NCBI GenBank assembly: GCA_963783375.1
Contig: CAWANH010000029.1
Span: forward strand, 1,408,001 to 1,472,000
Length of the DNA: 64,000 nt
Direction: 5' to 3'
Source: Candidatus Eiseniibacteriota bacterium
GTDB lineage: Bacteria > Eisenbacteria > RBG-16-71-46 > JABDJR01
Shown here: piece after piece, positions 46,978 through 63,845 of the stretch
How the letters are laid out: every line of letters begins with the position of its first letter
How positions within the stretch are numbered: position 1 is the stretch's first letter
Made by a program: the position numbers and the translations under genes
Notes under the pieces: generated by a model
Databases searched by the model: none
Told to the model about the DNA's origin: nothing
The model's input: the letters and a program-made list of their open reading frames with translations, nothing else

Positions 46978-47454
46978 ATGGAAGATCGATCCGTCTCGCT
47001 CCCCCCATCGGGTCGCCGCCGTTTCCTGGGATGGCTCCTGGGCACGTCCGGCGCGGCGTTGCTCTTCTCCGCGCTCTATCCCGTCCTCCGGTTCATCAGT
47101 CCTCCCCGCGTTCCCGAAGCGAGCACCAACCAGGTGGAGGCGGGTCCGGTCAACGACCCCGAGCTCATCCAGAAGGGGTACAAGATCATCCACTTCGGGA
47201 ACGACCCGGTCATCCTCATACGCGCCGCCGAGAATCACTTCGTGGCCCTCTCGGCCACCTGCACGCACCTGGATTGCATCGTGGAGTTTCAGAAGAACCG
47301 GGACCGGATCTACTGCAATTGCCACGGCGGGGTCTACGATCTCTCGGGACGCAACGTGGCCGGCCCTCCCCCCCGACCTCTCACTCCGTTCAAGGTCGAT
47401 GTCGTGGCCGCCCAGAGCGGCCAGCCCGCGACCATCATCGTTTCCCGGGCATAA
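46978..47454 (+). CDS. Rieske 2Fe-2S subunit
   Basis: Tat-like RRRFL plus TM helix; CTHLDC and CNCHGG. Confidence 0.95.
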   Translation: MEDRSVSLPPSGRRRFLGWLLGTSGAALLFSALYPVLRFISPPRVPEASTNQVEAGPVNDPELIQKGYKIIHFGNDPVILIRAAENHFVALSATCTHLDCIVEFQKNRDRIYCNCHGGVYDLSGRNVAGPPPRPLTPFKVDVVAAQSGQPATIIVSRA

Positions 47455-47457
47455 AAC

Positions 47458-48615
47458 ATGGCGCGCGAATCCCTCTTCCGATGGCTTGACCGCCGCCTCC
47501 ACGTCTCCTTCCTCGTCGACGCGGGCTCCCACAAGACCGTCCCCCTCCATCGCTACACCGTCTTCTACTACCTGGGTGGCATGACGCTGTTCTTCTTCAT
47601 CGTCCAGGCGGTGACCGGCGTGCTCCTCATGCTCTACTATCGCCCTTCGGCCGGGGAGGCGTTCGAGTCGGTCGAGTTCATCATGACCACCGTTCCCTTC
47701 GGCTGGCTCCTGCGGTCCATCCATTCCTGGTCGGCCAATCTTCTCGTCTTCTTCGCCTTCCTGCACATGGCCACCGTCTTCATCATGAAGGGCTACCGCC
47801 CGCCGCGGGAACTCACCTGGATCACCGGTTGCGTGGTCTTCTTCCTGGTCATGGCCTTCGGGTTCTCCGGCTATCTCCTTCCCTGGAACCAACTTGCATT
47901 CTTCGCGACCAAGGTGGGCACCGACATCGCGGGATCGGTTCCGGTGGTCGGGGAGTGGCTGCTGCGGTTCCTCCGCGGCGGCGATCGCGTGACCGGAGGA
48001 ACCCTCTCGCGGTTCTACGGCTGGCACGTGGCCATCCTGCCGTCGATCACCCTGCTCCTCCTGGGGCTCCATCTTCTCCTCGTCCAGATCCACGGCATGA
48101 GCGAGCCCGAGGCGGTCCGGCGGCGCGAGGTGAAGTCTCCCGGCATGAAGTTCTTTCCCCATTTCGCCCTCCGCGATCTCTTCGGGTGGACGGTGGCCCT
48201 GGGCGTGCTGGCCGCCCTGGCCGCGTTGTTCCCGTGGGAGCTCGGCGAGAAGGCCAACCCCTTCGCCCCGGCCTACCCGAACATCCGGCCCGAGTGGTAC
48301 TTCATGTTCATGTTCCAGACCCTGAAGCTCGTCCCGGGGGGCGAGATCGCGGGGATCGAGTACGAGGCGTTTCCCATTCTCCTGTTCGGGCTGGGGGGGG
48401 TGGTCCTGCTCCTTCTCCCCCTCTTCGACACCGGCGCCAAGCGGGTACGAACCCTCTTCACGAACGCTCTCGGCGGAGCGGCCCTGGCCTACGCGGTGGG
48501 GATGACGGTGTGGGGCTATCGATCCGCGGTGCCTCTGCTCCTGGTGGCCGCGGTCGCGGCGCTCCTCGTTTTGACGGCGTGGCTCACGCGCGGCACGCGG
48601 AGGTCACCATCGTGA
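47458..48615 (+). CDS. Cytochrome b (unsplit; b6-like and subunit IV-like parts fused)
   Basis: YLGG, RSIHSW, GYLLPWNQ, RFYGWH, PEWY. Confidence 0.95.
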   Translation: MARESLFRWLDRRLHVSFLVDAGSHKTVPLHRYTVFYYLGGMTLFFFIVQAVTGVLLMLYYRPSAGEAFESVEFIMTTVPFGWLLRSIHSWSANLLVFFAFLHMATVFIMKGYRPPRELTWITGCVVFFLVMAFGFSGYLLPWNQLAFFATKVGTDIAGSVPVVGEWLLRFLRGGDRVTGGTLSRFYGWHVAILPSITLLLLGLHLLLVQIHGMSEPEAVRRREVKSPGMKFFPHFALRDLFGWTVALGVLAALAALFPWELGEKANPFAPAYPNIRPEWYFMFMFQTLKLVPGGEIAGIEYEAFPILLFGLGGVVLLLLPLFDTGAKRVRTLFTNALGGAALAYAVGMTVWGYRSAVPLLLVAAVAALLVLTAWLTRGTRRSPS

Positions 48616-50348
48616 TCGGGCTCTTGAACCTCATGCTCCCGCTTCTTCTCGCCGCGGATCCGGCGGCGATCGCGCCTTCGCAATCGCCACAGGCTCCGCA
48701 GACCCCGCAGACCTCCTGCACCACGTGCCACATGAGCCCCGACCTGTTCGACGCCGAGAGCCTGAAGGAGTGGGAGGGGATCGACCGGGACGTGCACCAT
48801 CAGGCCGGGCTCTCCTGCCAGGACTGCCACGGCGGCAACCCGGATCCCGCGTTGAGCGAGGATGCCGAAGCGGCCATGGACCCGAACTTCACCGCCAACC
48901 CCTTCCGGGGGGCCCCGCTCCGGACGGCGATCCCCGCGTTTTGCGGCCGGTGCCATTCCGATCCCGTCTACATGAAGCGTTTCCGTCCCGACCCGCGGAT
49001 CGACCAGGAGCAGGAGTACTGGACGAGCCGCCACGGCAAGGCCTTGCGCACCGGGGATATCAACGTGGCCACCTGCATCGACTGCCACGGCACCCACCGG
49101 ATCCTCCCCCCGGACAACCCCGAGGCCCCGGTGTACCCGACCCACGTGGCCGAAACCTGCGGCCGGTGCCACTCGGATCCCGAGCACATGAAGGGGTATC
49201 GGCTGGACGACGGGCGGCCCCTCCCGGTGGACCAGTACGCCCGTTGGTCACGGAGCGTTCACGCCAACGCCCTCCTGGTGAAGGGGGATCTCACCGCCCC
49301 CACCTGCAACGACTGCCACGGCAACCACGGCGCGACTCCTCCGGGGGTCAAGGAGGTAGCGTTGGTCTGCGGCCAGTGCCACGGCCGCGAAGCGAACCTC
49401 TTCCGGGCGAGCCCCAAGCAGGTGGGATTCCAGAACCACAACGATTTCCTGGCCGAGGCCGGGGACGAGGGTTGCGCCTCGTGTCACGACGCCGACCAAC
49501 CGCCGGGCACGATGACGGGGATTCAGCGCTTCTACGGGTGCGTGGTTTGCCACGAGAACCACGGCGTCGTCCGCCCGACCATCGCCCTCCTGAGCCCGCT
49601 CCCCGACACTCCCTGCGCGCTCTGCCACGAGGGTCCCGAGCCGGCGGGCACTACGGGGGAGCCGGAGAAGGTCAAGCAGCACTTCCGCGAGGTGCGGGAT
49701 GCCCTGCTGGCCAAGACGGTGGGGATGGCCCCCGAAGACCGGTTCGATTGGCTGGTCGACCAGGCGCTGGTCCTCGATACCCACACGCTCCCCGGCGGGG
49801 AAGGCGAGGCTCCCGCCCTCCGGCCCGAGTTTGCGCGCCTCTTCGAGCGGTTCCGTATCGGCAAGACCCACTACACCTTCGTGGATCCGGAAACCGGGAC
49901 CGAGGTCAAAGCCCGCGTTCGCCGGTGCGGCGATTGCCATGCCGCGCCCCCGGATTCGGAGCCTCCGGAAGGCGGCTTCGCCGTCTCCCAGGAGTATCTG
50001 GACGACATGCATGCGCTTACCTTGCAGATCGCCCGGGCCGAGCGGAGCTTCCTCGCCGCCCAGCGCGGCGGCGTCGAGGTCCGGGAGGCGCTTACCTCGC
50101 TCGATAGCGCGGTGGACAGCCAAATCCAGCTCGAGGTGCTCGTCCACGGATTCTCCACCAGCCAGGATGGAGCCTTCGTCGCCAAGCAGAAGGAGGGCAT
50201 GGCCCACGCCCAGGCGGCCGCGGTCACCGCTCAGCGCGCGCTCGAGGAGCTGACGAACCGCCGTCGCGGTCTCAGCATCTCCCTCATCTTCATCCTCATC
50301 TTCCTCACCGCCCTCGGCCTCAAGATCCGAGATCTCTCCCGACCCTGA
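48612..50348 (+). CDS. Membrane-anchored 11-heme cytochrome c
   Basis: 11 CxxCH motifs counted; signal peptide; C-terminal helical stalk and TM helix. GTG start overlaps the cytochrome b stop. Confidence 0.9.
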   Translation: MIGLLNLMLPLLLAADPAAIAPSQSPQAPQTPQTSCTTCHMSPDLFDAESLKEWEGIDRDVHHQAGLSCQDCHGGNPDPALSEDAEAAMDPNFTANPFRGAPLRTAIPAFCGRCHSDPVYMKRFRPDPRIDQEQEYWTSRHGKALRTGDINVATCIDCHGTHRILPPDNPEAPVYPTHVAETCGRCHSDPEHMKGYRLDDGRPLPVDQYARWSRSVHANALLVKGDLTAPTCNDCHGNHGATPPGVKEVALVCGQCHGREANLFRASPKQVGFQNHNDFLAEAGDEGCASCHDADQPPGTMTGIQRFYGCVVCHENHGVVRPTIALLSPLPDTPCALCHEGPEPAGTTGEPEKVKQHFREVRDALLAKTVGMAPEDRFDWLVDQALVLDTHTLPGGEGEAPALRPEFARLFERFRIGKTHYTFVDPETGTEVKARVRRCGDCHAAPPDSEPPEGGFAVSQEYLDDMHALTLQIARAERSFLAAQRGGVEVREALTSLDSAVDSQIQLEVLVHGFSTSQDGAFVAKQKEGMAHAQAAAVTAQRALEELTNRRRGLSISLIFILIFLTALGLKIRDLSRP

Positions 50349-51096
50349 TCCAACCGGCGGGCGGGAGGATCGTCGGAGACGGACGGCGGCCATCATGGGC
50401 ACCGACCGTCCGCCAGGGACCCACCCCTGCGCTTTCCTATCCCCGCTTCGACCTGCGGGGGGGTGGACTTCCATCTCCAGGTCCCCGCCCATACCGGGCG
50501 CGACGCGGTCCGGCGGGACACGGGACGGGATTCCCGGGAAGGGACACGAGCCCGGCCCGTTCCTGAAGTCGTGTCGTGAGGGGAGCCGATGACCGTCGGA
50601 CCGGGCACCGGAGCGTCCGACGACGCAGGCGTACCCGGTGCGGTACGTCGAGGAGGCGGACCGCGAGGACGCCCGAGCCGCCGATCAGATGCCCGCCGGA
50701 CCAGCCGGTTGGTGAATGGGCCGGACCGGAAGTGAACCCCGGGAGATTCCTGCGCCTACCCGGGCACCGCCGGTGGATCCGGATTGCCGGCTTCACCTTG
50801 AGACACCCCACTGTGCCGACAACGATGGACTCAGGTGGAAGCTTCAGACCCATGTGGACACGGGTCGGCGAGGCGCGCCCCTTCAAGTCTCGCCGCCGGA
50901 GACGGCAGTCTCTCGATGGAATAAACGGGCGGGCGCCCATCCGGACGCCCGCCCGACTTCCAGAGACCTATCGTCGCAATGGAACCCTACCGGCTCGGCT
51001 CGGTCCGGTCGACCGTGGACCGAGCCTCCCTCCCTCCGGCGACCGCCGGGCCCCGTTCAGGAACGGCCGCCCGGGCCCCGAGGGGAGGTTGGGAGC

Positions 51097-52074
51097 CTAG
51101 TGCACCGCGGCGGCGCTTGCCCCCATCCTCGAGAGACCCTCCTCGAGCAACGCCTTCGCGTAGTCGGGGTTGTGAACGCCCATGCTCTTGTCCTCGTGCA
51201 TGACGTAGAGCCAGTTGTAGAGCGCAATCCCCTGATCCTCGGGGGCCTCCGAGACGGTCGGATGCCCGTCCTCCGAGTTCTCGTTGATGAGGCCGGCGTT
51301 CACCAGCAACGCTCCGAGCTGGCTCCCCAGGTCCTCGATCTCGGTCTGCACGCCCTTGTAGTCGAAGCTCGTGGCCTCGGGGTGACAGCGCTGGCAGGTG
51401 GCCAGGGCGGGCTCGAAGTGGTGGTCATTGGTATCACCCATGTGACAATCGACGCAGGTGTTCGTCACCGCTCCGTAGTGCGGGCTCACGGTCCCCGTTA
51501 CACCGGCGCCGGCGACGCCGAGCAGCATGGCGCTCTGCGGACCGTGGTGCGGGCCCCAGTGGGAGCTGATACCGGTGATCACGCCGTTTTCCGCCACCGG
51601 GAAATCGCGACGCGGCTGGTGACAGTTGGCGCACAGGTTCCCCTCCCCGCCGTCGAAGGTCGCACCTTCGATGGAGGCGAGGTGAACCGGTTGCGCGGTT
51701 CTCAGCGAGAAGTCCGCCATCGAGTAGGTCTCGTGGATCATGTGACAGGCGCGGCAGTCCTGGCGCGTCGGGTCCGGCTGGCCCATCTCCACCTCGGTCG
51801 GGTTCTCCCCCGCCGCCACCATCTCCTGGAAGCCGTTCCCGGAGTGGCACCCGGCGCAACTTGCGCTGCTCGACCGCACGTAGGCCGTTCCGGTGCCGTG
51901 CACGGACTCCGCCCACTCGGTTTGCTTCCCGGTGATGATGCTGCTGGCGTTGTGGCAATCCGCGCAGGACAGCGGCTTGGTCGACTCGACGCGGGTGATG
52001 GTGCGATCACACGACTGGGCGCCGATCAGCACCGCGACTGCCCCGAGTGCTAGGATGGTTTTTGCGACGGACAT
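51097..52074 (-). CDS. Hexaheme cytochrome c lipoprotein
   Basis: Lipobox-like GAQSC; 6 CxxCH; C-terminal helices with GVHNPDYA. Confidence 0.88.
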   Translation of the reverse strand: MSVAKTILALGAVAVLIGAQSCDRTITRVESTKPLSCADCHNASSIITGKQTEWAESVHGTGTAYVRSSSASCAGCHSGNGFQEMVAAGENPTEVEMGQPDPTRQDCRACHMIHETYSMADFSLRTAQPVHLASIEGATFDGGEGNLCANCHQPRRDFPVAENGVITGISSHWGPHHGPQSAMLLGVAGAGVTGTVSPHYGAVTNTCVDCHMGDTNDHHFEPALATCQRCHPEATSFDYKGVQTEIEDLGSQLGALLVNAGLINENSEDGHPTVSEAPEDQGIALYNWLYVMHEDKSMGVHNPDYAKALLEEGLSRMGASAAAVH

Positions 52075-52107
52075 CTAGGCCTCCTTCTTTTCCTTTTCTG
52101 CTTGCGC

Positions 52108-53676
52108 TTACTTCCCGTGCAGGTCGTAAGCGACGTTGAACCAGACCACATTGGCGGTGTAGTAGCGATCCAGGAGAATGTAATCGTCGTAGTTGTACAC
52201 GTTGTACTTGGCCTCGAGGTGAATGTCGTCCTTGACGGCGTATGCCCCCTCGAAGAAGAGAATCGACTTCTCGATATCCAGGTCGCCGCCCACGTTCAGG
52301 AAGGTGAGACCGCTGGAAAGACGCAGATCCTTGATCCTCTCCAGGTCCACCCGGCCGGTGACGCTGTTGTTCCAGGCCCGGAACCTCCCGGTGCGATCCT
52401 GGAACTCGTCGTTGGAATACTCGTAAGTCCCCGACAACCCGCCCCATCCGGCATAGGCGTACCGGGCGTATGCGGAGGCGACCTGTCCCGTGGCGCTGAC
52501 GTCGATATCGGGATAGTCCCGGTCACGAATACGGAATCCCGAACCGATCGAAAGACCCTTGACCGGGTTCACCTCCAGGTCGCCACGGAAATGGGCGGTC
52601 TCGATGTCCTTGAGAAGGGTCAGCTCCTCCTGGTCCTTCTTCAGCCTGCCCGCGTACCGGAACCTGGCGGTGAGGAGCTTGTTGTACCGGAAGGTCGTCG
52701 CCGCCCGCCAGCTGCTGTAGTACGTGAGGGAGACCTCGTCGTCGTTGGTCTCGTATCCGTAGCCGAGGGAGACGTCGCCGTACCGGTAGAAAACGGTGGC
52801 GTCGATGTCGTTGGTGAAGCGATCCGTCTTGAGATCGGTGGTCTGGTCGTCGATCCGCTGGGCTTCGAATCGGTACTCGAGGCGCAGGGGATCGACCGGA
52901 TCGATCAGGCCGGTGTACTGGAAATTGGCCAGGGTGTAGTCCAGGTCCCCGGTGGAGAGGTTGCTGACCCCGTAGGCCGCCCGCAAGAGGTGTGTCCACC
53001 TGTCGTAGAACATGCAGGGAGTCGCGATCCGGGCCGAGACGACCTGGCCGGTGCGGTCGGCGTCCGAGTTCCGCTGGTCGCTGAAGTCGGAGACGCGATA
53101 GTCGACGGCCAGAACCCTTCGGTTCTTCCGGGCCTCCGCCGACACACGGCCGGAGAGGAGGCCGCTGTCGTACCGGAGCCCCAGGGCGTCGGCGGTTCCG
53201 GGTGGATAGGATAGACGGTTCCCGGTCTGGGTGATGTAGCCCAGGGATCCCTCGAGTTTGATCCAGCGCTCCGGAGTGAATCGCGCGTTCAGGTTCCAGT
53301 TCCGCCGGTCGGACGTCGTGTTGCGGCCGGGGTCGAACACCTGGCGGTTTTGGGTGAGCGAAGCCGACAGCTTGAATCTGCCCGGTCGCCGGTAGAGCAA
53401 CTTCCCTTGACGACTGTCGAAGTTGATCTCCTTGAGGTCGATCATCAGGTAGTTGTCGGGATTCGGCGTTCCGGTCAGGCGGAGCTGGGTGATGGAGAAC
53501 CCGTCGTGGATGTTGTAGGTCTCCTGGACCGCGGACCGGTCCCCCACCTCATCGAGGATGACCCCGCCCAGTTTCACGGTCCCGGTCCACGCCCCCGCCC
53601 GAAGCGGAGCCGCCCCCAGGACGAAGATGAGCATGGCCATGAGTGTCGCTCGGGTCTTCATTCGCATTCGCACCAT
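52108..53676 (-). CDS. Outer-membrane beta-barrel (MtrB/PioB-like position)
   Basis: Signal peptide, alternating beta-strand pattern, aromatic C-terminal strand; lies between two multiheme genes. Confidence 0.8.
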   Translation of the reverse strand: MVRMRMKTRATLMAMLIFVLGAAPLRAGAWTGTVKLGGVILDEVGDRSAVQETYNIHDGFSITQLRLTGTPNPDNYLMIDLKEINFDSRQGKLLYRRPGRFKLSASLTQNRQVFDPGRNTTSDRRNWNLNARFTPERWIKLEGSLGYITQTGNRLSYPPGTADALGLRYDSGLLSGRVSAEARKNRRVLAVDYRVSDFSDQRNSDADRTGQVVSARIATPCMFYDRWTHLLRAAYGVSNLSTGDLDYTLANFQYTGLIDPVDPLRLEYRFEAQRIDDQTTDLKTDRFTNDIDATVFYRYGDVSLGYGYETNDDEVSLTYYSSWRAATTFRYNKLLTARFRYAGRLKKDQEELTLLKDIETAHFRGDLEVNPVKGLSIGSGFRIRDRDYPDIDVSATGQVASAYARYAYAGWGGLSGTYEYSNDEFQDRTGRFRAWNNSVTGRVDLERIKDLRLSSGLTFLNVGGDLDIEKSILFFEGAYAVKDDIHLEAKYNVYNYDDYILLDRYYTANVVWFNVAYDLHGK

Positions 53677-53680
53677 CCTA

Positions 53681-54640
53681 CTACTGGTGACAGCCTGATT
53701 TGAGACAGCCTTGGTCCCTGAGCGACTCGCTCAGGAAGTTCCGGCTGGTGTAGGAACCGTGAATGTCCACGTGGCAGTCGTTGCACGGAATGTCGGCCCA
53801 TCTGGTTCCGTGATGGGAGTTCATCTGGTGTAGCGGGACGGTGTGGCACTGCTTGCACAGCTGGAAGTTCGGAGCCTCGTAGGGCTGCTTGAGCATCCGC
53901 GGCAGGTAGGACCCGTGGGGGTCGTGACAGTTCATGCAGCCCCCCTCCTCCGTGGAGTAATCCACCGTCGCCTGGTGCTCGTAGGGGAACGGTCCCTGGA
54001 ACTCGCCGTGGCAGCTCGTGCACATCTCGCTGCCGTTCCTGGACATGTCCCGGGAGCCGGCGTCCAGGGTCTTGTGACAATCGGCGCAGTTCATGACTCC
54101 GTCATCGACCGGATGCCGGAAGGGCTTGGCGAACTGATTTCCCACCGCGGTGTGGCACCCCAGGCACAGATCGGGCTGCGCTTTCCTGAGGAGCGGAGGC
54201 TGGGTGGAAGCGTGGACGCTGTGACAGCCGCTGCAGTTCACGTCGCTCCGGGCGTGGACGTTCTTTTCCATCATGTTTTGCTGGTGGCTGTTCAGGTGGC
54301 AGGTGGAGCAGATCTTGCCTTCGACCGCCGCGCTCAGGGCGGCGGGAACCGGCATCGGATACTGCTCCGGGTCCTCCTCGTAGTGACGAGAGTCCCCGCG
54401 GTGGCAATCGGTGCAGGCTACCCGGACATCGGCTCCCTGATCGGATTCCCGGGCCACCCGATGGGGGGTCAGTGCGAGTGAATCGGCCATTCCCTCATGG
54501 CACGTCAGGCATGTTTCGGTTTCACGGGGGTAGTCCCCGGCGGAGGGATCCGGCTGCGATCCGGCGAGAAGAACGATGACAAAAGGAACAAGGAATAACA
54601 CCGGCACGTAGCGACGCAGTTCCTTGGCTTGCTCTTTCAA
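53681..54640 (-). CDS. MtrA/DmsE-family decaheme cytochrome
   Basis: 10 CxxCH plus terminal CLKSGCH; GPFPYEH..., CHDPHGS, CHVDIHGS are typical of the family. TTG start after GGAGG. Confidence 0.88.
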   Translation of the reverse strand: MKEQAKELRRYVPVLFLVPFVIVLLAGSQPDPSAGDYPRETETCLTCHEGMADSLALTPHRVARESDQGADVRVACTDCHRGDSRHYEEDPEQYPMPVPAALSAAVEGKICSTCHLNSHQQNMMEKNVHARSDVNCSGCHSVHASTQPPLLRKAQPDLCLGCHTAVGNQFAKPFRHPVDDGVMNCADCHKTLDAGSRDMSRNGSEMCTSCHGEFQGPFPYEHQATVDYSTEEGGCMNCHDPHGSYLPRMLKQPYEAPNFQLCKQCHTVPLHQMNSHHGTRWADIPCNDCHVDIHGSYTSRNFLSESLRDQGCLKSGCHQ

Positions 54641-54911
54641 TGGGCCCCCTCCGAAGAAAGACCGCCTATGTAGCTCTTTCAGGGCGAAACGTACCAACAC
54701 CTTAACGGAGCCGTCAAAGTGCTTTTTCCGATTTGACTTATTCTTTTATCGTGTTCCGGAGGGAGATCTCCCCATTCAAACCTGGAATATGAGGTATCAA
54801 GAGAAAACAGATAATTCTTGTCATAAAATCTTTCCTCCGGAACCCGCCCGGGCGCGTTCCCCCGGGGGAAGGCCGCCCTGGAAAGCGGCCTCCCCCCGAG
54901 CCGTCGTACGC

Positions 54912-57900
54912 CTACGGCCCCGAGGGGGAACGCACCTGCATGTTCTCCCCCAGGTGGCACTGCATGCACAGGTCCCGGGTCTTGTCGTGGGTCAGGAGCG
55001 CCTCGAAGGGACTCGAGTGCGGGTCATGACAGGACGTGCAGGTGATGGCCAACCCGGTCCGGGGGTCCTTGGTCGGACCCTGGTAGGGGTGGAAGTGGCT
55101 CTTGGTCACATCGTCATGGCACTGGAGGCAGAGCTTTTCCTGAGGCTCGTTCAGGATGCCCCGGGTCGCGCTCCCGTGAGGGTCGTGGCAGGTGTCGCAG
55201 CCGCCCACGTCCGGGTGCTTGTACTCTCCGGCGAACATGGCCCGGTCATGGCAGGTGAAGCAGGTCGAGGCCTCGTCCTCACGCCTGAGAAGCGACGCCG
55301 TCCGCCCGGCATGGGGGGAGTGGCAGTTGAGGCAGGCCAGCTTCTCGGTCACCGCGGGGTGGACCACCGGCTTCTCGGCGTCCTTGGCATGGCCGCCGTG
55401 ACAGGTGACGCAGAGCGCCGCTCCCTCCGCCTTCAGCCCGTTCTGCCCGGCGTGGCACGCCATGCAGTCCTTCTGGGCGTAGGGGGCGTGGTTGAAGGCC
55501 AGGACGAGGCCCGGCTCGGTCGAGCCGTGGGGATCGTGGCAGCTCGTGCAGTCCCCCTTCCCCGCCTCGAACCCACGGTGCCTGGCTTTGAAGGCGGAGG
55601 CGGTCTCGTCGTGGCACTGCCCGCACAGGGCCTTGGCCGGCTCGGCCAGGAGCCCCTTCACCGTCCCCACGTGGGGGTCGTGACAGGTCTGGCAATCCCC
55701 TTCCTTGGCCGGGGGATGGGCGTTGGCCAGCCGGCTCCGCTCGGCGACCGCCGGGTGGCAGTCGGCGCAGAGGCCCGGAGCCGCCTCCTTGAGGAGTCCG
55801 GGCATGACCCCCTCGTGCCCGCCGTGGCAGACCCGGCAGTTCCCATCCCGGACCGGGCTGTGGACCAGGTCGGGGTCGGCCTTCTTGATCCGCCCGCCCG
55901 GGTCGTCATGGCACCGGGCGCAGAGTCCGGGCCCCGAGTCCACGAGCAGGGTCGAGTCGGCGGCGGCATGGGGATTGTGGCAGCTCGCGCACTCCCCCGC
56001 CTCCACCGGGGCGTGAAGTCCCTTGGGGGGCGCCGGGGCCTCGATCGCCCCGTGGCAGGACCCGCAGAGCTCGACCTGGGAGTCCACCAGCTCCACCTTC
56101 CCCCCCGGGGACTGGGGCTTGTGGCAGGTGGAGCAGGACCCCGGGCCGAAGGGCTCGTGGCGGACCGCTCGCAGGAGCCCCTTTTCCCGGCTCCGATGCG
56201 GATCGTGGCAGGATAGGCAGCTTCCCCCCTCCGGGGCGAAGTTGTCGTGGAGCTTCCTGAAATCCCGGTCCCCCACGTCGTGGCAGGAGCTGCAGGGGTT
56301 CTTCAGCGCCACCAGCCCGTCGGCGCCCTTGGTCTGGTGGGGATCGTGGCAGACCTCGCAGTTCCCCTCCTTCACCGGGGGATGGACGGTCCCGCTGTCC
56401 AGGGAGTCCTTCATCGCGGTGTGGCAGGTGAAGCAGATCTCGCCCTTGGCCGCCCTCAGGAAGGGCGGTCCGTCGGCGGTCCCGTGGGGATTGTGGCAGT
56501 CGGCGCACTTTCCCTCCGCCGCCGGCTCGTGGAGGGTCGCGGGGGGAAGATCGGCGGTCACCTCGCTGTGGCAGCCCCCGCAGAGCTCGGCGGCCGGGCT
56601 CACCAGGAGTCCGCGATTGGTCCCGCCGTGCGGCCGGTGACAGTCGGTGCACTCACCCTCGGCGAAGGGCGGGTGGGGGCTCGCCACCCTGAGCTCGTCG
56701 ACCTGCCTCGCGTGGCAGGGCAGACAGACCAGGGGCTGCTTCTGGACCAGGATGGCCGGGTTGTCGCTCCCGTGAGCCTGGTGGCAGTCGGCGCACCCGT
56801 TCCCGGCGAAGGGGAAGTGCACCACCGGGAGCTTCCGCTCCCCGGCGGTGTCCTCATGGCAGGAAAGACAGGTCACGTCCTCGGCCTGGGTCAGGAGATG
56901 CGGCTGGGTGCTGACGTGCGCGGTGTGGCAGGCGCGGCAATCGTCCTGGAGCGGGGCGTGGGGCACCTTGACCGAATCGGCGGCGGCGATCACGTCCTGG
57001 TGGCAGGACGCGCAGAGGTCCGGCGAGGCCTTTCGCAGCATGGCCTTCCCGCCGCCCCCGTGGGGGGCGTGACAGGCGTCACAGGCCAGGGCCTCGAACG
57101 GGGCGTGCCGCGACACCAGGTCCTTCTGGTCGCGCGGGTCCTCATGGCAGACGAAGCAGAGATCCTCGGCGTTTCCCTTGAGCAGGAACCTACGGTCCGC
57201 GCTGTGGGGATCGTGGCAGAACAGGCAGTCGCCTTCCGCCGCGGGAGGATGGCCGCCCGGCCCCGCGGCGGTTTCCCCCACGTCGGAGTGGCAGGTCACG
57301 CAGAGATCTTCCTTCGACGCGGTGAGCTCCCCGGGCTTGTCCGGCAGGCCGGCGTGGCAGGCCTGGCAGTCCGCCTCGGCGTAGGGAGCGTGCACGTATC
57401 CCCGGTTCTGGTCCGTGCTGGTTGAACCGTGGGGATCGTGGCACGATGAACAGGACGCGCCCGCTACCTCCGGTCGAGCATGGAGTTCCGGCAGCTCCGA
57501 TACGGGACCGTGGCAGCGGGCGCAAAGCTCTTTCTCGGGCGCGACCAGAAGGTTCGCGTTGGCCGAGTTGTGGGGAAGGTGGCACTCGGAGCACTTCCCC
57601 TCCTCGAAGGGTTTGTGTTTCCGGGTGGAGGCGATGGCCGCCTTGAGCTTGGGATGGCAGGAGGCGCAGGTCTCGGCTTCGGGACCGCGGAGCAGCCCCT
57701 TCTGGTCCGAGGCATGGGGATCATGGCAGCCGTCACAGGTGACCCCTTCCACCGCCAGATGATCCGAGCCCGAATCCGGGGCCACCTTCACGTCCTGGTG
57801 GCAATCCGTGCAGAGCTGGGGGAAGTCCTTCTGAAGGATCAGCGACTGGGCGAAGCCGTGCCGCTTGTGACAGGACTCGCAGTCCTCCTGCGCCGTCGGG

Positions 57901-58076
57901 ATGTGAACGACCTTCTTCCCCTTGAACTCGTCCCGGGCCTTCTGGTGGCAGTCGTAGCAGGGGCGTCGCTGGAGCGCCTCGCTTCGGCCGGCGAATTCCG
58001 GCAGGAAGAGCCCGGCCGCCACGGCCAGGACCACGAACCCGAGGCCGACGACGGCGGTGCGAACGCGGGGAACCAT
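54912..58076 (-). CDS. Giant 42-heme cytochrome c (paired CxxCH repeats)
   Basis: 42 CxxCH counted by hand in about 1050 aa; repeating HxP...CxxCHxPH...LL...LCxxCH units; N-terminal signal or anchor. Confidence 0.92.
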   Translation of the reverse strand: MVPRVRTAVVGLGFVVLAVAAGLFLPEFAGRSEALQRRPCYDCHQKARDEFKGKKVVHIPTAQEDCESCHKRHGFAQSLILQKDFPQLCTDCHQDVKVAPDSGSDHLAVEGVTCDGCHDPHASDQKGLLRGPEAETCASCHPKLKAAIASTRKHKPFEEGKCSECHLPHNSANANLLVAPEKELCARCHGPVSELPELHARPEVAGASCSSCHDPHGSTSTDQNRGYVHAPYAEADCQACHAGLPDKPGELTASKEDLCVTCHSDVGETAAGPGGHPPAAEGDCLFCHDPHSADRRFLLKGNAEDLCFVCHEDPRDQKDLVSRHAPFEALACDACHAPHGGGGKAMLRKASPDLCASCHQDVIAAADSVKVPHAPLQDDCRACHTAHVSTQPHLLTQAEDVTCLSCHEDTAGERKLPVVHFPFAGNGCADCHQAHGSDNPAILVQKQPLVCLPCHARQVDELRVASPHPPFAEGECTDCHRPHGGTNRGLLVSPAAELCGGCHSEVTADLPPATLHEPAAEGKCADCHNPHGTADGPPFLRAAKGEICFTCHTAMKDSLDSGTVHPPVKEGNCEVCHDPHQTKGADGLVALKNPCSSCHDVGDRDFRKLHDNFAPEGGSCLSCHDPHRSREKGLLRAVRHEPFGPGSCSTCHKPQSPGGKVELVDSQVELCGSCHGAIEAPAPPKGLHAPVEAGECASCHNPHAAADSTLLVDSGPGLCARCHDDPGGRIKKADPDLVHSPVRDGNCRVCHGGHEGVMPGLLKEAAPGLCADCHPAVAERSRLANAHPPAKEGDCQTCHDPHVGTVKGLLAEPAKALCGQCHDETASAFKARHRGFEAGKGDCTSCHDPHGSTEPGLVLAFNHAPYAQKDCMACHAGQNGLKAEGAALCVTCHGGHAKDAEKPVVHPAVTEKLACLNCHSPHAGRTASLLRREDEASTCFTCHDRAMFAGEYKHPDVGGCDTCHDPHGSATRGILNEPQEKLCLQCHDDVTKSHFHPYQGPTKDPRTGLAITCTSCHDPHSSPFEALLTHDKTRDLCMQCHLGENMQVRSPSGP

Positions 58077-58077
58077 G

Positions 58078-58629
58078 TTACTTCTCCTCGGCGCTGGGAG
58101 GTTCGTAGCCATGAACTTCCTTGAGCTGGAACGTGAAGAACGATTTCGGCGAGAAGTGAGGCGGGAAGTTCAGGAACGCCCACGAGCTGTCGACCGCCGC
58201 CCCCTCCTTGAACACCAGCACGTGGACGGCCGGGTTCTTCATTTCCATGGAGAAGTTCACCGGCTTGCCGCCGGCGATCTTGAAGTCGGGCATGAAGCCG
58301 CTCACCCGGGCGGTGTAGGGAGTGTCCCCCAGGTACATCGTCTCGCCGAGCTTCACGGTGTGGGACTCGCTCCAGCTCGGGTACATCCGGTTTCCCACCT
58401 CGAGGCCGAAGCTCAAGGTGGTGTCGGCCGCGATGGCCGCGGTGTCGGCTCCGGTTTCGGGCCCCGTGGTCCTGGGAAGCGAGCGAAGGATGGCGGCGGC
58501 GCCCGAGTCCGGCGACGCCTCCTCGGGGTGGACGGCCGCCGAATCCGCCGGCGCGTCCTGGGATCGGGCCCCGTCCGCCCAGGCCCAGACCAGGAGTCCC
58601 AACCCCACCGCGATCAAGATCCGTCTCAT
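58078..58629 (-). CDS. Exported hypothetical protein (possibly ResB-like beta domain)
   Basis: Signal peptide; FMPDFKI...S.EMKNPAV...WAFLNFP. Confidence 0.65.
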   Translation of the reverse strand: MRRILIAVGLGLLVWAWADGARSQDAPADSAAVHPEEASPDSGAAAILRSLPRTTGPETGADTAAIAADTTLSFGLEVGNRMYPSWSESHTVKLGETMYLGDTPYTARVSGFMPDFKIAGGKPVNFSMEMKNPAVHVLVFKEGAAVDSSWAFLNFPPHFSPKSFFTFQLKEVHGYEPPSAEEK

Positions 58630-59282
58630 CCGATCCCTCCCTTTCCCGGCGCCACACCCACGTCCGTCCGGTCCGACTCTCCCGTGTCCTTCGGGGGCGG
58701 CGAGCTCGACGCTCCGGCGCCGCCCCGGACCGGAGGCAGGGTGGAGAGAATCCCCTCCACGGTTTCCGAAGCCAATCGCTCCAGGCTGGACACCCGCCCG
58801 ATACCGAACACGCTTTCCTTGTCCCCGCCGTCCCGGCTGTACACCGCACTCCAGAGCACCTTCCCCCCGGGCACCTCCAGGAGCCGGAGAGACACCGAAA
58901 CCTGGGGCACCTGGCTTCCGTCCGCATCCCGATAGCCGTAGGCGAGGACCGACCCCACCAGGAGCGCGTTGGCCCCCATCTCCACCCCCAGTGAATCCAC
59001 CAGGTCCGGGGGCAGGCGGTCGGTCATGATCCACGGCTGCTTGGAGAGCGCAGCCTCCATACGTCCCACATCCACCACCGCGATCCCGCGGTGCTCGGCC
59101 AGGGCCACCGCGAGCATCGGGGCAAGCCGGTCGGGAGCGTCCCGGGTCGGCGTGTAGTTGGCCAGGGGAAGGATCCCCACCCGCCAGCTTCCGCTCAAGG
59201 GCTCCGCAACGTACGCCCGAGGCCCCGGCGCGCAGCCGGCCAGGACCAGGATGATGGCCGCGAGAACCGTCTTCCGGGTCAT
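58626..59282 (-). CDS. Lipoprotein, CsgG/LpoB/GNA1162-like fold
   Basis: Lipobox LAGC; VGILPLAN, GANALLVGSV, VSLRLLEV..GKVLWSA. Confidence 0.75.
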   Translation of the reverse strand: MTRKTVLAAIILVLAGCAPGPRAYVAEPLSGSWRVGILPLANYTPTRDAPDRLAPMLAVALAEHRGIAVVDVGRMEAALSKQPWIMTDRLPPDLVDSLGVEMGANALLVGSVLAYGYRDADGSQVPQVSVSLRLLEVPGGKVLWSAVYSRDGGDKESVFGIGRVSSLERLASETVEGILSTLPPVRGGAGASSSPPPKDTGESDRTDVGVAPGKGGIG

Positions 59283-59869
59283 CAGCGCCTCGCTCGCGGA
59301 AGTGAGGACAGAAGTCCCCGGCAGACGTCGGCGGTGAGGGTTTCCATCAGCCGCACCCCTCCCCAGCCGAGGATGGGGAAACCGGCCCCGCCCTTCCGGG
59401 TCTCGCTCGCGCTCCAGACCAGGCGGCCGGTGGCCGCGTCCACCAGGCGCACCTCGATGGAAAACAGTGGATAGGAATCGCGCCCGGAGCTCACCATCTC
59501 GTACTGCCGCACCGTGCCCATGAAGATCCCCTGCACGCCCGCCTTTTCTCCCAGTTGGGCCAGTTGTTCGGTCGACCAGGGAGTCTCGGCGGGGATCCCC
59601 CCGCGGATCTGGGTCATGTCCGCGGCGAACTGTCCGGGTTCCACCACCTCGGCGAACCCCCGTTCCAGGAGCTCGGTGAAGAACACGTTGGTGACCCGGT
59701 ATCCCGCGGCCCGATCCTGGGCGAGGCTGGTGAAGGGGATGATGCCCACCCTCTCGTAGAAAGGCAGGTCGGCCTCGGGGTTCAGGAACCGGGTCGGACC
59801 CCCGCAACCGGAGACGGCGATGAGCGTCGTCGCCACCAGGAGCGCTCGGAGCCTCGAAACGTTGTTCAT
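59282..59869 (-). CDS. Lipoprotein, CsgG/LpoB/GNA1162-like fold (paralog)
   Basis: Lipobox VSGC; VGIIPF, GVQGIFMGTV, VRLVDAATGRLVWSA. Confidence 0.78.
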   Translation of the reverse strand: MNNVSRLRALLVATTLIAVSGCGGPTRFLNPEADLPFYERVGIIPFTSLAQDRAAGYRVTNVFFTELLERGFAEVVEPGQFAADMTQIRGGIPAETPWSTEQLAQLGEKAGVQGIFMGTVRQYEMVSSGRDSYPLFSIEVRLVDAATGRLVWSASETRKGGAGFPILGWGGVRLMETLTADVCRGLLSSLPRARR

Positions 59870-59887: not shown

Positions 59888-61464
59888 CTAGAAATTCCGG
59901 TCCACCGAGAGACCGTAGGTGTCCAACGTGGCCCGCCCCCGGACCGCGACCTGTCGCCAGGAAAGCTGAACCCGGGTGCGACGGGCAGGCCAGAAAGTGA
60001 AGTCGGTTCCCTTGATGATCTCGGAGGAGCGCGAGGTGAGGACCAGGGCCTCCCGCCGGGACCAGTCGAGGGAGAGGGAGGTGCGCTGGCCGAGCCGCAG
60101 GTTCCCGGTCAGGCTCCCGTAGCGTTCTTCGCGGTCGATCCGGCCCCGTCCGTTCTGGCGCCGGTAGGTCGCCACCAGGTCCGCCCCCGTGGCCGGCTGG
60201 TACCCGACCTGGTACTCCCACTGGCGATCGGTCTGGGCCCTCCCGTCGATTTCGGGGAGGGTGTCCCTCCGCCAGGTGACCTCGAACCGGGTATCCCGGC
60301 TGGGAAGGGTGCGGAGCTGGATCAGGCGATGCCACTGGGTTCCGGTGGAGACCGAGCCCCCCGCGCGCGACGCCCGGAGCTCGGCGCGGGCGTTGATTCC
60401 CTTGCGGAGGAGGCCGTCCACCAGGGTGAAGACGGTGTTCTGGGGGATCGAGCCGTCTTCGGAGCGGATGTTGAAGGAGCGGAGGTAGCCGGACTGGAAG
60501 GTCATCCCCCGAACGATCTCCCGCCGGAAAATGGCCTGGAGACGAGCGTAGTCCGCTTCGATGTCTCCGTCCACGGCCTGGCGCCGTCGATACTCCCGGA
60601 GCCCTTCGAGGCTCAGCCCCTTCACCGGCTGGTAGGCCAGGCGCCCGCTCAGGTAGCGTTCGTTGATGGTCTGATCGGCGGTCAGGGCATTGTCCTGACT
60701 CCGCCCCCAGTACACCAGCGCCGAGGTACCGACGGTGAACCGCCGGGAAGGCGCCCAGCTCGAGTTCAGGTTCATTCGCTGGGTGTAGAAGGTCCGGTCC
60801 CGGTCCCGGGAACCGAAGGTGGAGTAAAGGGCGTCGTAGGTGGCCTGGGCGTTGGCCCGGCCGAGATTGACCCCGGTCCGGAGCCCCCCCGCCACTCCTC
60901 GGTCCGGGTGTCGGGGTTCAGCCCTCCCATGGGGCGGGCGTCCAGTCTCCGCCAGGAAAGGTTGCTTCCGAAAACCCCGCCGGCGGCGTAGGAAACCTCG
61001 GCCCGGCGATCGTCGGTGGTGGAGCGGCCCTGAAGGGTCTCCCGATCCTGGCGTTCGTACTTCAGCGCCATCCTCGGGGCGCCGCGCGGGCTCACGTCGA
61101 GACCGAAAAGCAGGTTCCGGTCCCGGGACGTGCTAACGCCCACCGACGTCTGCTGCCAGGGGGTGAACTGGGTGGTGAGACGCCAGGCAGGCTTTCTGAG
61201 GTCGGCGAAGAAACGGGAGCTCAGGAGGTCCGAGTTCTCTTGTCCCGGGTTCGCCCGGTAGGAGAGGGACATGCGGAGCCTGAGGTCGGCGCTTCCGGGG
61301 AGCACGGCGCGCGTGCTCAGGTCGTAGTAGTGGCGCATGACGTCCGCGTCCGCTATTCCCGAGGTGTGGTGGTACGAACCCACGTAGCGACCCTCGTAGG
61401 CCCCGGCCCCCGCCGGAACGGCCAGAGTCGCCCCGGCCAGGATGAGCGCCGCCCACCGGTGCAT
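59888..61464 (-). pseudogene. Outer-membrane beta-barrel split by a 1-nt frameshift in a G7 run (60884-60890)
   Basis: 5' ORF with signal peptide and 3' ORF ending in ...SVDRNF join in frame if the run is G8. Confidence 0.78.
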
Positions 61465-62621
61465 CAGGGTCCTCCCCGTCCCCACGGGCTCGGGCTTCCC
61501 GGTGCGCCGTTACCGGGCTCGCCCGGATTGTGAACGTTGTGGGAGGTGGGACCGGAGTAGTCGCGGCCGTGGCAGTCGTAGCAACTCTGGAAGCCGGTGG
61601 AGCGATGGGGGCCCCGGTCGGAGAGGGTGTTCATGACGATTCCCTCCACCGTCTGCGCCCCGGGAATCCCGTCCGAGGCGATGTGGCAGCCGAGGCAGAA
61701 CCGGCGGCACTGGGTCGCGTCGTTCACGGTGTCGGTGAGCCCGCTCCAGTCAACCCGCTCGTCGCTGATCAGGTATCCGTTCGGCTGCACCCGGTTGTGC
61801 CCCTCGGAACCGTGGGGATTGTGGCAGTCGTAGCAGGGGAGCATGTCCCCGACCTGGATGTGCGCGGGCCAGGAGAGGGCGACCCGGGATTCCTTCCGGA
61901 TCTGGTGGCCGGCGTGCTCGCCGTTCAACCCCGCGTCGTAGTAGTCCGCGATGTTCCGGTTCGCGGGGTCCATGCCTCCCGGCGCGTCCTGGTCGTGGCA
62001 GGAGAAGCAAAGCGCGTATTCCTCGGGAGATCCCACCGCGGCGTGGCCGCCGATCCCCCCGTAGGGCTTCAGCAGGAGGTCGCGACGATTCGGGGTGCCG
62101 TGAGGATCGTGGCAGTTCTCGCAACGCCCCTCTCCCGAGGCGTCTCGCCGGGGCATGTCGGGGTCCTGGGCGTGAGGCGAAAAGAAGTGACCCCCGGGCG
62201 TGATTCCCGGATCGGTGTAGGCGGTCTCCCCCGGCCAGCGGCCGCGATAGTTCACGCCGACCAGGCGCTCCCCGCCGGTGTTGGCCTCGAAGTAACCGGC
62301 GTCGGGTTCGGACTCGGGCATGCGGTCGGATTCGCCGAGGGGGTAATTGCCGGGACGGCGGCGGTGGCACGGTTCTGCCCCCTGGTCCCAGAAGGCGAGC
62401 TGGTTGGTGTTCTCGGTGAAGAGGAGGAGCGGATAGGGGGAGGGCTCCCACGCGTCGCCGTGGGGAGGATGGCACTGCTGGCACTGCCCCCGGGCCTGAT
62501 CGGCGTCACGGAGCACCCCGGTCTGCGGGTCCCCATGGGGATCGAAGGGCGTGTCCGCGGATATGTTCCAAGCAGCCAGAAGCAGGGCCGCCGTGAGAAC
62601 CATGCCGGAAACGGGTCTCAC
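61464..62621 (-). CDS. Exported multiheme cytochrome c (6 CxxCH plus one degenerate site)
   Basis: CQQCH, CENCH, CFSCH, CYDCH, CLGCH, CYDCH; extra AEPCH; signal peptide. Confidence 0.88.
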   Translation of the reverse strand: MRPVSGMVLTAALLLAAWNISADTPFDPHGDPQTGVLRDADQARGQCQQCHPPHGDAWEPSPYPLLLFTENTNQLAFWDQGAEPCHRRRPGNYPLGESDRMPESEPDAGYFEANTGGERLVGVNYRGRWPGETAYTDPGITPGGHFFSPHAQDPDMPRRDASGEGRCENCHDPHGTPNRRDLLLKPYGGIGGHAAVGSPEEYALCFSCHDQDAPGGMDPANRNIADYYDAGLNGEHAGHQIRKESRVALSWPAHIQVGDMLPCYDCHNPHGSEGHNRVQPNGYLISDERVDWSGLTDTVNDATQCRRFCLGCHIASDGIPGAQTVEGIVMNTLSDRGPHRSTGFQSCYDCHGRDYSGPTSHNVHNPGEPGNGAPGSPSPWGRGGP

Positions 62622-62670
62622 ACCAAGCTCCCCCGGCCGCAATGTCGAAACGGGAAGGCAATGATGGACC

Positions 62671-62774: not shown

Positions 62775-63845
62775 TTACTGGGCCTGGGTGTGGCACTGAC
62801 CGCAGAGGGCGCGGGCCGAAGTCCCGTCGTCGCCCTGCTCGGTCACCGTGCCGGTGCCGATCATGTAGATCAGGCCGAACGCGTTCTGGTTGCCGTGGCC
62901 CTTGTGGCACGACATGCAGGACTGCGTGAGGCCGGTGTCGGTCCCGTCGTATGCGCCGGCCTTCTGGCCGGTGGGCGACATGACCTGGACCTGGTTGGTC
63001 TTCCCGGTCAGGAAGGCCAGACCGGAGTGACCGCCGCCCAGGGCGCCGATGTCGACACCCGCCGCCGGGTGACGCACGAAGTCCGCGGGAGGAGCTCCCG
63101 TGCCGCCGATCTCCGCCCCGCCGATGTCACCGTGGAAGTTGGTGTGGCAGGCCTTGCAGAAGGAGGCATAGGCGGACGCGGTCGTCACCGGCTCGTTGAA
63201 GGTGATCGCCCCGACCCCGTAGTGGTTGGCGCTGGTGCCGCTGGAGGCATTCTCGTACACCCACTTGGTGAGATCGTTGGCACCCTCGACGTCGCCGCGG
63301 GAGTAGGTCAGGAGGGTCGAGATCCCGCTCAGCGGAGGACCATAACCGCCCAGGTTCCGATAGGTATTGACGTGAGCCGAGTTGCCGCCGTGGGGCGAAT
63401 GGCAGTCGGTGCACTTCAGACCATCGGGATCGCTGAACGTGCCGCCCGGAGCCACGGCCAGCGAGTTCAGGGTGTGCCCGGTGGTCGGCGGATAGAGACC
63501 GTTGCCGCCCAACTCGTTCAGGGCACCCGCCTGACGGACATAGCCGTTGGTGTGGGTTTCGAACACGTCCGGCGCGAGCGCCTGCCCATCGTGGCAGGCC
63601 AGGCACAGGTTGTTGATATCGTCACGGAGCAGGAACTCGAACGGGCCGCCCGGTCCGAGCGGCGTGTAGAAGCCCGATCCGTTGGGGTTGTATCCATGGC
63701 TCTGGCTGTAGTGCATGACGTGGCAGTCGGAGCAGATCAAGGCCGAGCCGGTGTGATAATCACCGGCGAATCCGACGGACACGAGCACGGTCAGAGCGAG
63801 GAGAATCCCCGGACCAAGGAGGAGTTTCTTCCTCATAGCCACCAT
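62775..63845 (-). CDS. OmcS-like hexaheme cytochrome c
   Basis: Signal peptide, then YH...CSDCHVMH, CLACH, GH...APGGT...CTDCHSPHG, YRNLGG, CKACHTNFH, RHPA, CMSCHKGH, RALCGQCH. Start may be ATG 63836. Confidence 0.85.
   Translation of the reverse strand: MVAMRKKLLLGPGILLALTVLVSVGFAGDYHTGSALICSDCHVMHYSQSHGYNPNGSGFYTPLGPGGPFEFLLRDDINNLCLACHDGQALAPDVFETHTNGYVRQAGALNELGGNGLYPPTTGHTLNSLAVAPGGTFSDPDGLKCTDCHSPHGGNSAHVNTYRNLGGYGPPLSGISTLLTYSRGDVEGANDLTKWVYENASSGTSANHYGVGAITFNEPVTTASAYASFCKACHTNFHGDIGGAEIGGTGAPPADFVRHPAAGVDIGALGGGHSGLAFLTGKTNQVQVMSPTGQKAGAYDGTDTGLTQSCMSCHKGHGNQNAFGLIYMIGTGTVTEQGDDGTSARALCGQCHTQAQ

Follow-up and report, generated by a model that had tools for sequence, protein, structure and literature searches.

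A conserved 42-heme cytochrome that joins OscI and OscJ in a single chain

The 42-heme gene and its product

This analysis concerns a multiheme cytochrome gene in a 64,000-nucleotide stretch of DNA from Candidatus Eiseniibacteriota bacterium (assembly GCA_963783375.1, contig CAWANH010000029.1, positions 1,408,001 to 1,472,000), which we call the window. By sequence comparison, the encoded protein is a head-to-tail join of two cytochromes, the 26-heme OscI (GSU2495-type) and the 16-heme OscJ. The gene and the parts of its product, in window coordinates, are as follows.

54912..58076, minus strand: 42-heme paired-CXXCH cytochrome, single-chain OscI+OscJ, 1054 amino acids (open reading frame and homologue comparison)
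57975..58076, minus strand: N-terminal basic and hydrophobic leader, about residues 1-34, with no lipobox Cys (read from the sequence; AlphaFold2 helix 7-35)
57354..57959, minus strand: module 1, hemes 1-9, 9 conserved distal His, OscI part (alignment)
56121..57302, minus strand: module 2, hemes 10-26, 17 conserved distal His, OscI part, with an MtrA-like rod stretch (alignment and model)
56067..56120, minus strand: linker without His that connects heme 26 to heme 27; in split relatives a stop codon and another signal peptide occur at this place (relatives' sequences)
55452..56066, minus strand: module 3, hemes 27-35, 9 conserved distal His, OscJ part (alignment)
54954..55412, minus strand: module 4, hemes 36-42, 7 conserved distal His, conserved HP..DPR motif, OscJ part (alignment)

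Positions 58076-54912 form a single open frame of 1054 amino acids plus a stop codon. It contains 42 CxxCH motifs, or one heme per 24.3 residues, in agreement with a first-pass annotation made from the sequence alone, which had reported 42 motifs at about one per 25 residues. Shuffling the protein 2000 times gave a mean of 0.54 motifs and a maximum of 4, and 84 of the 84 cysteines lie inside the motifs. The ATG at 58076 is preceded by GAGGAG and abuts the TAA of the upstream gene, while an alternative, longer start at 58112 falls within that gene. The leader is likely to be a Sec signal peptide, judging from its composition. A scan of positions 54500-55100 for promoters and terminators gave nothing exceeding chance. 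RNA runs yielded one 151-base piece within the gene, and such contigs cannot rank expression.

The motifs are arranged in regular pairs, as had also been described. Pfam recognizes 21 Paired_CXXCH_1 stretches (E 1.9e-203), whose diheme units span about 48 residues, and the protein belongs to PF09699 at 658 bits against a cut-off of 20.6; TIGR01905 scores 618 bits. The linkers are alternately of a "PH" and an "HxP" type, with one His in each.

Modules and junctions

The three similar junction segments mentioned in the first-pass annotation are present. They are 23-residue linkers after hemes 8, 25 and 34 that hold both His types, and each is followed by a His-free linker, after hemes 9, 26 and 35 respectively. 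The His-free linkers after hemes 9 and 26 occur in 77 of 77 relatives and the one after heme 35 in 66 of 77. The second junction is the natural split of the 42-heme chain, and the join of OscI and OscJ at this point had been missed.

An alignment of 78 sequences contains exactly 42 conserved histidines outside the motifs. Of these, 39 are present in 99-100% of the rows, H994 in 92% and H199 in 81%. The conserved distal histidines are divided 9/17/9/7 over hemes 1-9, 10-26, 27-35 and 36-42. Their number thus equals the number of hemes in each module, which fits bis-His ligation within self-contained modules; the pairing of individual histidines with individual hemes is one that we infer. Conservation of the non-ligand residues is highest at both ends of the chain (0.61 in unit 2 and 0.54 in unit 41, with 0.30-0.51 in the others). 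The same type of junction is reused in other module arrangements, in proteins with 35, 38 and 52 motifs (P0081, P0085, P0086, P0094, P0118 and P0119).

Identity with OscI and OscJ

The homologue search returned 563 proteins, and the counts for relatives given here are drawn from the best 120 of them. Full-length relatives number 79, at 32-40% identity, and a second class of matches consists of proteins of 640-780 residues with 26 motifs that align to residues 1-660. In Geobacter (L042, L043) and Desulfuromonas (L041), a 26-heme gene and a 16-heme gene lie side by side, preceded by the same barrel and lipoprotein genes as in the window. The order of these loci (Geobacter sp. AOG1, H2geo and Desulfuromonas) is hexaheme or dodecaheme, barrel, lipoproteins, peptidyl-prolyl isomerase (PPIase), 26-heme, 16-heme, NHL. 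In G. sulfurreducens, GSU2495 is a 26-heme protein in an eight-gene block after the omcS-like gene GSU2501, according to the description of that block in bioRxiv 2025.11.06.686851, and GSU2495 and GSU2494 are the genes named oscI and oscJ in PMC13194489.

The split proteins are colinear with the fused one. With the motif letters removed, the 26-heme proteins fit best at heme 1 in five of five pairs, with scores of 357-430 against 83-142 for the next-best register. The 16-heme proteins fit best at heme 27, also in five of five pairs, with margins of only 10-71, which are narrow because the modules resemble one another. The fused protein therefore behaves as an ortholog of both in this colinear-register test. 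Motif spacing, junction pattern and operon position are alike in the split genes and the 42-heme gene, and identity to the AOG1 proteins is about 35% for OscI and 34% for OscJ. Where the split forms are two separate genes, each with a signal peptide, the window has one frame and an 18-residue junction without a hydrophobic stretch.

The gene could in principle be an artefact, arising from misassembly of an expanded repeat or from chance read-through of two genes, but we regard the probability of this as negligible. The assembly does contain at least one homopolymer error nearby, at 60883. However, the longest exact DNA repeat within the gene is only 17 bp, and internal DNA identity is 68-90% over short pieces. 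Exactly 42 motifs are found in 77 of the 79 full-length relatives (the other two have 41 and 40), with the junctions in register, so the heme number, whose comparison across homologues had been proposed as a check, is constant in 77 independent relatives. These results refute the repeat-expansion misassembly that the first-pass annotation had raised as a concern. Contigs from public runs, one of which (X1) may be the source sample of the assembly, show no insertion or deletion within the gene, although no single contig spans it, and no remnant of a signal peptide is seen at the junction. Short joints with sides of 21-24 bases also fall within the gene; we took them for matches contributed by other organisms.

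Distribution and direction of the change

In the phylum of the window, 73 of the 201 genomes have a match; in a table count, 51 matches are full length and free of stops, and three are split at the junction. The osc-type cluster reaches about a quarter of the sampled genomes of an uncultured phylum. The source labels of some relatives are Latescibacterota, Krumholzibacteria, Zixibacteria and Gemmatimonadaceae, and the window is probably from the same Fibrobacteres-Chlorobi-Bacteroidetes group. Of 301 genomes in the Geobacter phylum, 40 have a match, which is in no case full length and stop-free; the breaks lie at profile positions of about 670-686, and four were checked by translation.

Unrooted trees (LG+G4, with 74 and 50 chosen rows comprising every third of the 79 matches plus the loci) require two to three changes by fusion or fission, of which the starred branches force only one. 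A single fused clade is not rejected by these quick trees (approximately unbiased test, P = 0.34). Two fused loci, L027 and L039, lie outside the main fused clade and have a Geobacter-like operon, a hint of more than one fusion or fission.

The osc-like operon

The first-pass annotation had placed the 42-heme gene at the end of an omcS-like operon, and this proved correct. The gene is the last of an osc-like block that runs, in order of transcription, hexaheme, hexaheme, barrel, two lipoproteins, small gene, 42-heme gene. The other members of the block are listed here.

62775..63845, minus strand: OmcS-like hexaheme cytochrome (family profile)
61464..62642, minus strand: second hexaheme cytochrome, start codon uncertain (open reading frame)
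59888..61464, minus strand: outer-membrane beta-barrel, OscE-like (position and profile)
59282..59869, minus strand: OscF-like lipoprotein, 31% identical to the Geobacter gene, E 1e-20 (sequence match)
58626..59282, minus strand: OscG-like lipoprotein with weak CsgG/GNA1162 matches (OscG-like, 50-64 bits)
58078..58629, minus strand: small secreted protein of 183 amino acids in place of the OscH PPIase, with a weak DUF2155 lead (synteny)

For comparison we assembled 17 fused loci, namely 16 of the 50 other whole matches, chosen for their long contigs, and one frameshifted close relative. An OscF-like lipoprotein is present in all 17 and a close relative of the first hexaheme cytochrome lies upstream in 15. 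The second cytochrome has six motifs in the lineage of the window and nine in loci L024-L026, L030, L032-L034 and L036-L038. The small gene, whose product has no Pfam match, has a counterpart in 15 of the 17 loci (L024-L040), at the site that a SurA-type PPIase occupies in split operons; the two loci lacking it are L027 and L039, and L039 has a PPIase together with the fused gene. A tblastn search of the genome with the Geobacter PPIase (OscH) gave no match. Two proteins in our collection, P0092 and P0095, have Rotamase (PPIase) domains joined to paired-CXXCH chains with 22 and 26 motifs, and from their sequences could be either OscH-OscI fusions or joins made in gene calling.

The first hexaheme cytochrome resembles OmcS distantly. 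A profile of 15 non-Geobacter sequences has OmcS (6EF8) as its only match in the PDB (E 9.4e-7), while a PDB search with the single sequence gave no matches; the AlphaFold2 model has a predicted local distance difference test score (pLDDT) of 32.5. In close relatives, a large part of this gene (62775-63845) is represented in contigs of three metatranscriptome studies, which hints at its expression there, with DNA carry-over as an alternative. The barrel matches OscE-type barrels with a profile probability of 95.5, a type of match that barrel repeats can also give generically, and pairwise BLAST against those barrels found no match. Its gene appears frameshifted in a homopolymer near 60883. Since the contigs of four DNA runs (X1, X2, X3 and X5) carry one additional base there, the frameshift is an assembly error and the gene itself is unbroken.

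The operon shares an OmcS-like hexaheme, the barrel and two CsgG-like lipoproteins with the osc cluster (OscE, F, G). It differs in having one chain with one signal peptide where Geobacter has two genes, in its shorter barrel and shorter OscG, in the extra small gene and in belonging to another phylum. OscH, the beta-propeller OscD and the downstream NHL gene OscK are missing from it. Propeller matches (OscD, OscK) occur elsewhere in the genome, outside the operon, and there is an NHL gene upstream of the hexahemes.

Related systems

The core operon of SEEP-SRB1 bacteria and the OetABI conduit of the sulfate-reducing partners of anaerobic methanotrophic archaea have the same 26-heme and 16-heme pair and barrel, judging by the heme numbers, gene order and homology to Geobacter stated in the relevant parts of PMC5539420 and PMC10553843. 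There, too, the pair consists of two genes, and the core PPIase and propeller genes found there are missing from the operon of the 42-heme gene. The GSU1996-type c7 polymers are another long single-chain wire built from modules with local ligands and flexible linkers, as outlined in PMC11492766, but their units are c7 trihemes, in contrast to the two hemes per approximately 48 residues found here.

MtrA and DmsE share the paired-CXXCH repeat with our protein, and the predicted rod fold in residues 299-543 only. They have 10 hemes in about 300 amino acids, as opposed to 42 hemes in 1054 amino acids and four modules, and the 42-heme gene has no conserved adjacent MtrB of its own. The protein passes TIGR03508 only when nine repeated stretches are summed.

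The separate OscI and OscJ proteins and the osc cluster were already known; what we describe here is the conserved single-chain form. Our literature search found no description of a fused or 42-heme form, with the reservation that Shen et al. 2025 (Cell Chem Biol 32:239) was beyond its reach and may show the fusion. The words "fusion" and "fused" are absent from the main text of Murali 2023 (PMC10553843) as available to the search, and the parts of PMC3495685, PMC8478452 and PMC11323493 that were retrieved added nothing on the 42-heme protein.

Predicted structure and proposed function

The AlphaFold2 model of the 42-heme protein has a pLDDT of 83.5. Its sole clear structural match is MtrA (PDB 6R2Q chain A, E 9e-20), on whose rod the 10-heme stretch of residues 299-543 superimposes with a Z score of 12.8 and a root-mean-square deviation (rmsd) of 3.8 Å over 221 residues. 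Hemes in MtrA are spaced about 8 Å apart. A straight chain of 42 would accordingly measure an estimated 30-34 nm, curvature at the hinges aside.

Drawing on sequence and model, we consider it somewhat probable that the single OscI-OscJ chain forms a periplasmic rod of bis-His hemes, roughly 30 nm long, that carries electrons to or from the osc barrel and the OmcS-like cytochrome. The chain would be exported by the Sec pathway and acquire its 42 hemes in the periplasm. Four modules, each with its own axial ligands, would be connected by His-free hinges, and one conserved end may bind to the osc barrel or to the base of an OmcS-type filament and the other to a cytochrome on the inner-membrane side. 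NapC/NirT-like and c554-like genes just upstream provide a setting for the latter. Where OscI and OscJ are split, they would abut end to end in the same compartment. A more ambitious version is possible but doubtful: that the fixed-length rod, fused or split, hard-wires the base of an OmcS-type nanowire to the inner-membrane chain without diffusing carriers, and that the 26+16 arrangement is a molecular ruler kept across phyla.

Some published observations are relevant to this proposal. The passages of Skennerton 2017 (PMC5539420) on the 26-heme and 16-heme pair call it periplasmic. Portela 2024, in the part dealing with periplasm width, gives less than 30 nm for most microbes and more than 40 nm for Geobacter. 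In G. soli, late genes of the omcS region (SE37_02865 and pccJ) were reported in an excerpt to be up about 30-fold with omcS on ferrihydrite, and from their position these would be OscI and OscJ.

Several points weigh against the proposed rod. The predicted template modelling score (pTM) of the whole chain is 0.54, and the longer Foldseek alignment to MtrA has an rmsd of 16.8 Å. The elongated wire posited in the first-pass annotation is supported locally, by the stretch of residues 299-543 and by the fixed number of motifs, and is less certain for the chain as a whole. Docking of the last 10 hemes of AOG1 OscI with the first nine of OscJ scored 0.29 against a mark of 0.32, without controls, and speaks neither for nor against the rod. 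The likeness of the hexaheme to OmcS is distant, as described above, and the AOG1, H2geo and Desulfuromonas genes are stand-ins for those of G. sulfurreducens PCA. In the sections consulted, Skennerton 2017 (PMC5539420) describes the pair as having no known function and as unexpressed during metal respiration in four organisms, and PMC13194489 lists an oscJ frameshift among the mutations of current-producing G. sulfurreducens strains. According to Portela 2024, PpcA-E are able to charge OmcS themselves, which makes a fixed wire dispensable in Geobacter. According to a passage in bioRxiv 2025.11.06.686851, only OmcS itself is known to polymerise. Finally, the fusion indicates functional coupling, not mechanism.

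Other explanations differ mainly in where the chain would lie and with what it would interact. MtrA, the closest fold, is seated in a barrel in its complex. The 42-heme chain might by analogy run through the osc barrel with part of it extracellular, like MtrA and MtrC in one polypeptide, which would preserve the OetABI model; we think this unlikely. That model, as proposed in the pertinent text of Murali 2023 (PMC10553843), has OetA in the periplasm, OetI as a porin and OetB as an extracellular lipoprotein, and hmlB, which follows the PPIase in its operon table, would correspond to the 26-heme protein. A simple lipobox-like pattern occurs in 12 of 26 of the 26-heme proteins, but in only 3 of the 79 fused forms and in neither of the two Geobacter 26-heme proteins examined. 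Moreover, the N-terminal 26 hemes of a chain of about 134 kDa with its hemes would need to be threaded through a barrel that is itself proposed to secrete OmcS, a proposal for which PMC13194489 and PMC13712944 cite Shen 2025. Slightly less likely still is a redox scaffold that holds subunits in the reduced state or places them at the barrel during the building of an OmcS-type filament and has no role as a respiratory wire. The cluster has been tied to maturation and secretion of OmcS (bioRxiv 2025.11.06.686851 and PMC13194489, in the parts on this subject), and the gene is always found beside secretion or chaperone genes, including the OscF-like lipoprotein common to the 17 loci. Yet 42 hemes of fixed number are far above what a chaperone would need, and the folding and secretion roles cited in that portion of PMC13194489 belong to OscD-H, not to OscI or OscJ.

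An electron store, or capacitor, in the periplasm without fixed partners is improbable in our judgement. It would account for the very high density of 24 residues per heme and for the poor link between expression and metal respiration reported in the relevant section of Skennerton 2017 (PMC5539420), and a capacitor role is mentioned as possible for periplasmic cytochromes in a passage of Portela 2024. In a store, however, the heme number would be free to vary, whereas 42 is kept by 77 of 79 fused forms and 26+16 by the split forms; both ends are the most conserved parts, and the tie to the operon is strict. The fixed size and conserved ends therefore point to a wire of defined length more than to a store. 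The first-pass annotation had the wire connect an inner-membrane complex to the adjacent porin, feeding the MtrAB-like decaheme-porin pair downstream. This route, which we rate as very unlikely, has in its favour a decaheme (DmsE-family score of 180 against a cut-off of 192) and a barrel with an MtrB/PioB lead that follow on the same strand, as well as the upstream NapC/NirT-like gene and a Rieske/cytochrome b set nearby. Against it, the pair is found within 3-6 kb downstream in only 2 of the 17 fused loci (L026 and L028), compared with 15-17 of 17 for the osc genes, and the claimed link is correspondingly weak.

Bearing on published models

If the proposed periplasmic rod is correct, it would have consequences for other organisms. 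Murali 2023 (PMC10553843) places one cytochrome of the pair in the periplasm and the other, a lipoprotein, outside the cell, with a porin between them, and from gene order OetA and OetB would be the 16-heme and 26-heme proteins. A model in which the outer membrane separates the two proteins is difficult to reconcile with the OscI-OscJ fusion as read from sequence. For one polypeptide, in most cases without a lipobox, a shared compartment of the two halves is the better fit, except if the chain threads the barrel. A fixed-length bridge would correct the OetABI topology of the sulfate reducers that are partners of anaerobic methanotrophic archaea, and would make nanowire users of many uncultured lineages of the Fibrobacteres-Chlorobi-Bacteroidetes group.

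A natural, conserved fusion suggests that the two cytochromes act as one unit, in a fixed order with the C-terminal end of OscI next to the N-terminal end of OscJ, and it argues for a shared compartment. It also provides a single-gene construct with exact module borders for work on structure, conductance and complementation. Soares 2024 (PMC11492766) singles out long wire cytochromes of the periplasm as a class that awaits explanation, and the fusion bears on the route by which electrons pass through the periplasm and charge cytochrome nanowires.

Neighbouring electron-transfer genes and other large cytochromes

Just upstream of the window (L048, G000:C29:1471845-1475429, minus strand) are genes for a NapC/NirT-like 6-heme membrane cytochrome, a c554-like tetraheme and an NHL protein, which precede the OmcS-like gene on the same strand; on sequence grounds the NapC/NirT-like set is a candidate quinol-side partner. 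On the other side, the decaheme-porin-hexaheme set begins about 210 bp downstream of the 42-heme gene on the same strand. A profile of its porin found no matches in the PDB. Within 46999-54700, Rieske, cytochrome b and 11-heme genes on the plus strand face this minus-strand set of decaheme, barrel and hexaheme.

The genome has heme-attachment genes and 35 open reading frames with at least four motifs, for a total of 390 motifs. A chain of 42 hemes is no record. The record cited in the part of Soares 2024 (PMC11492766) on this point is 113 motifs, and we found longer paired-CXXCH proteins (P0121-P0128) that lack the junction pattern and contain 70-131 motifs; as assembled, P0121 (131) and P0123 (129) would exceed that record. 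Elsewhere in the genome (G000:C28:1121257-1127193, plus strand), a giant cytochrome is built from near-identical triheme units, each about 74 amino acids long, with 51+9+15 = 75 CxxCH motifs in three frames separated by two frameshifts. Its copy number could be affected by assembly. The gene follows a 23-heme gene and precedes a likely barrel gene.

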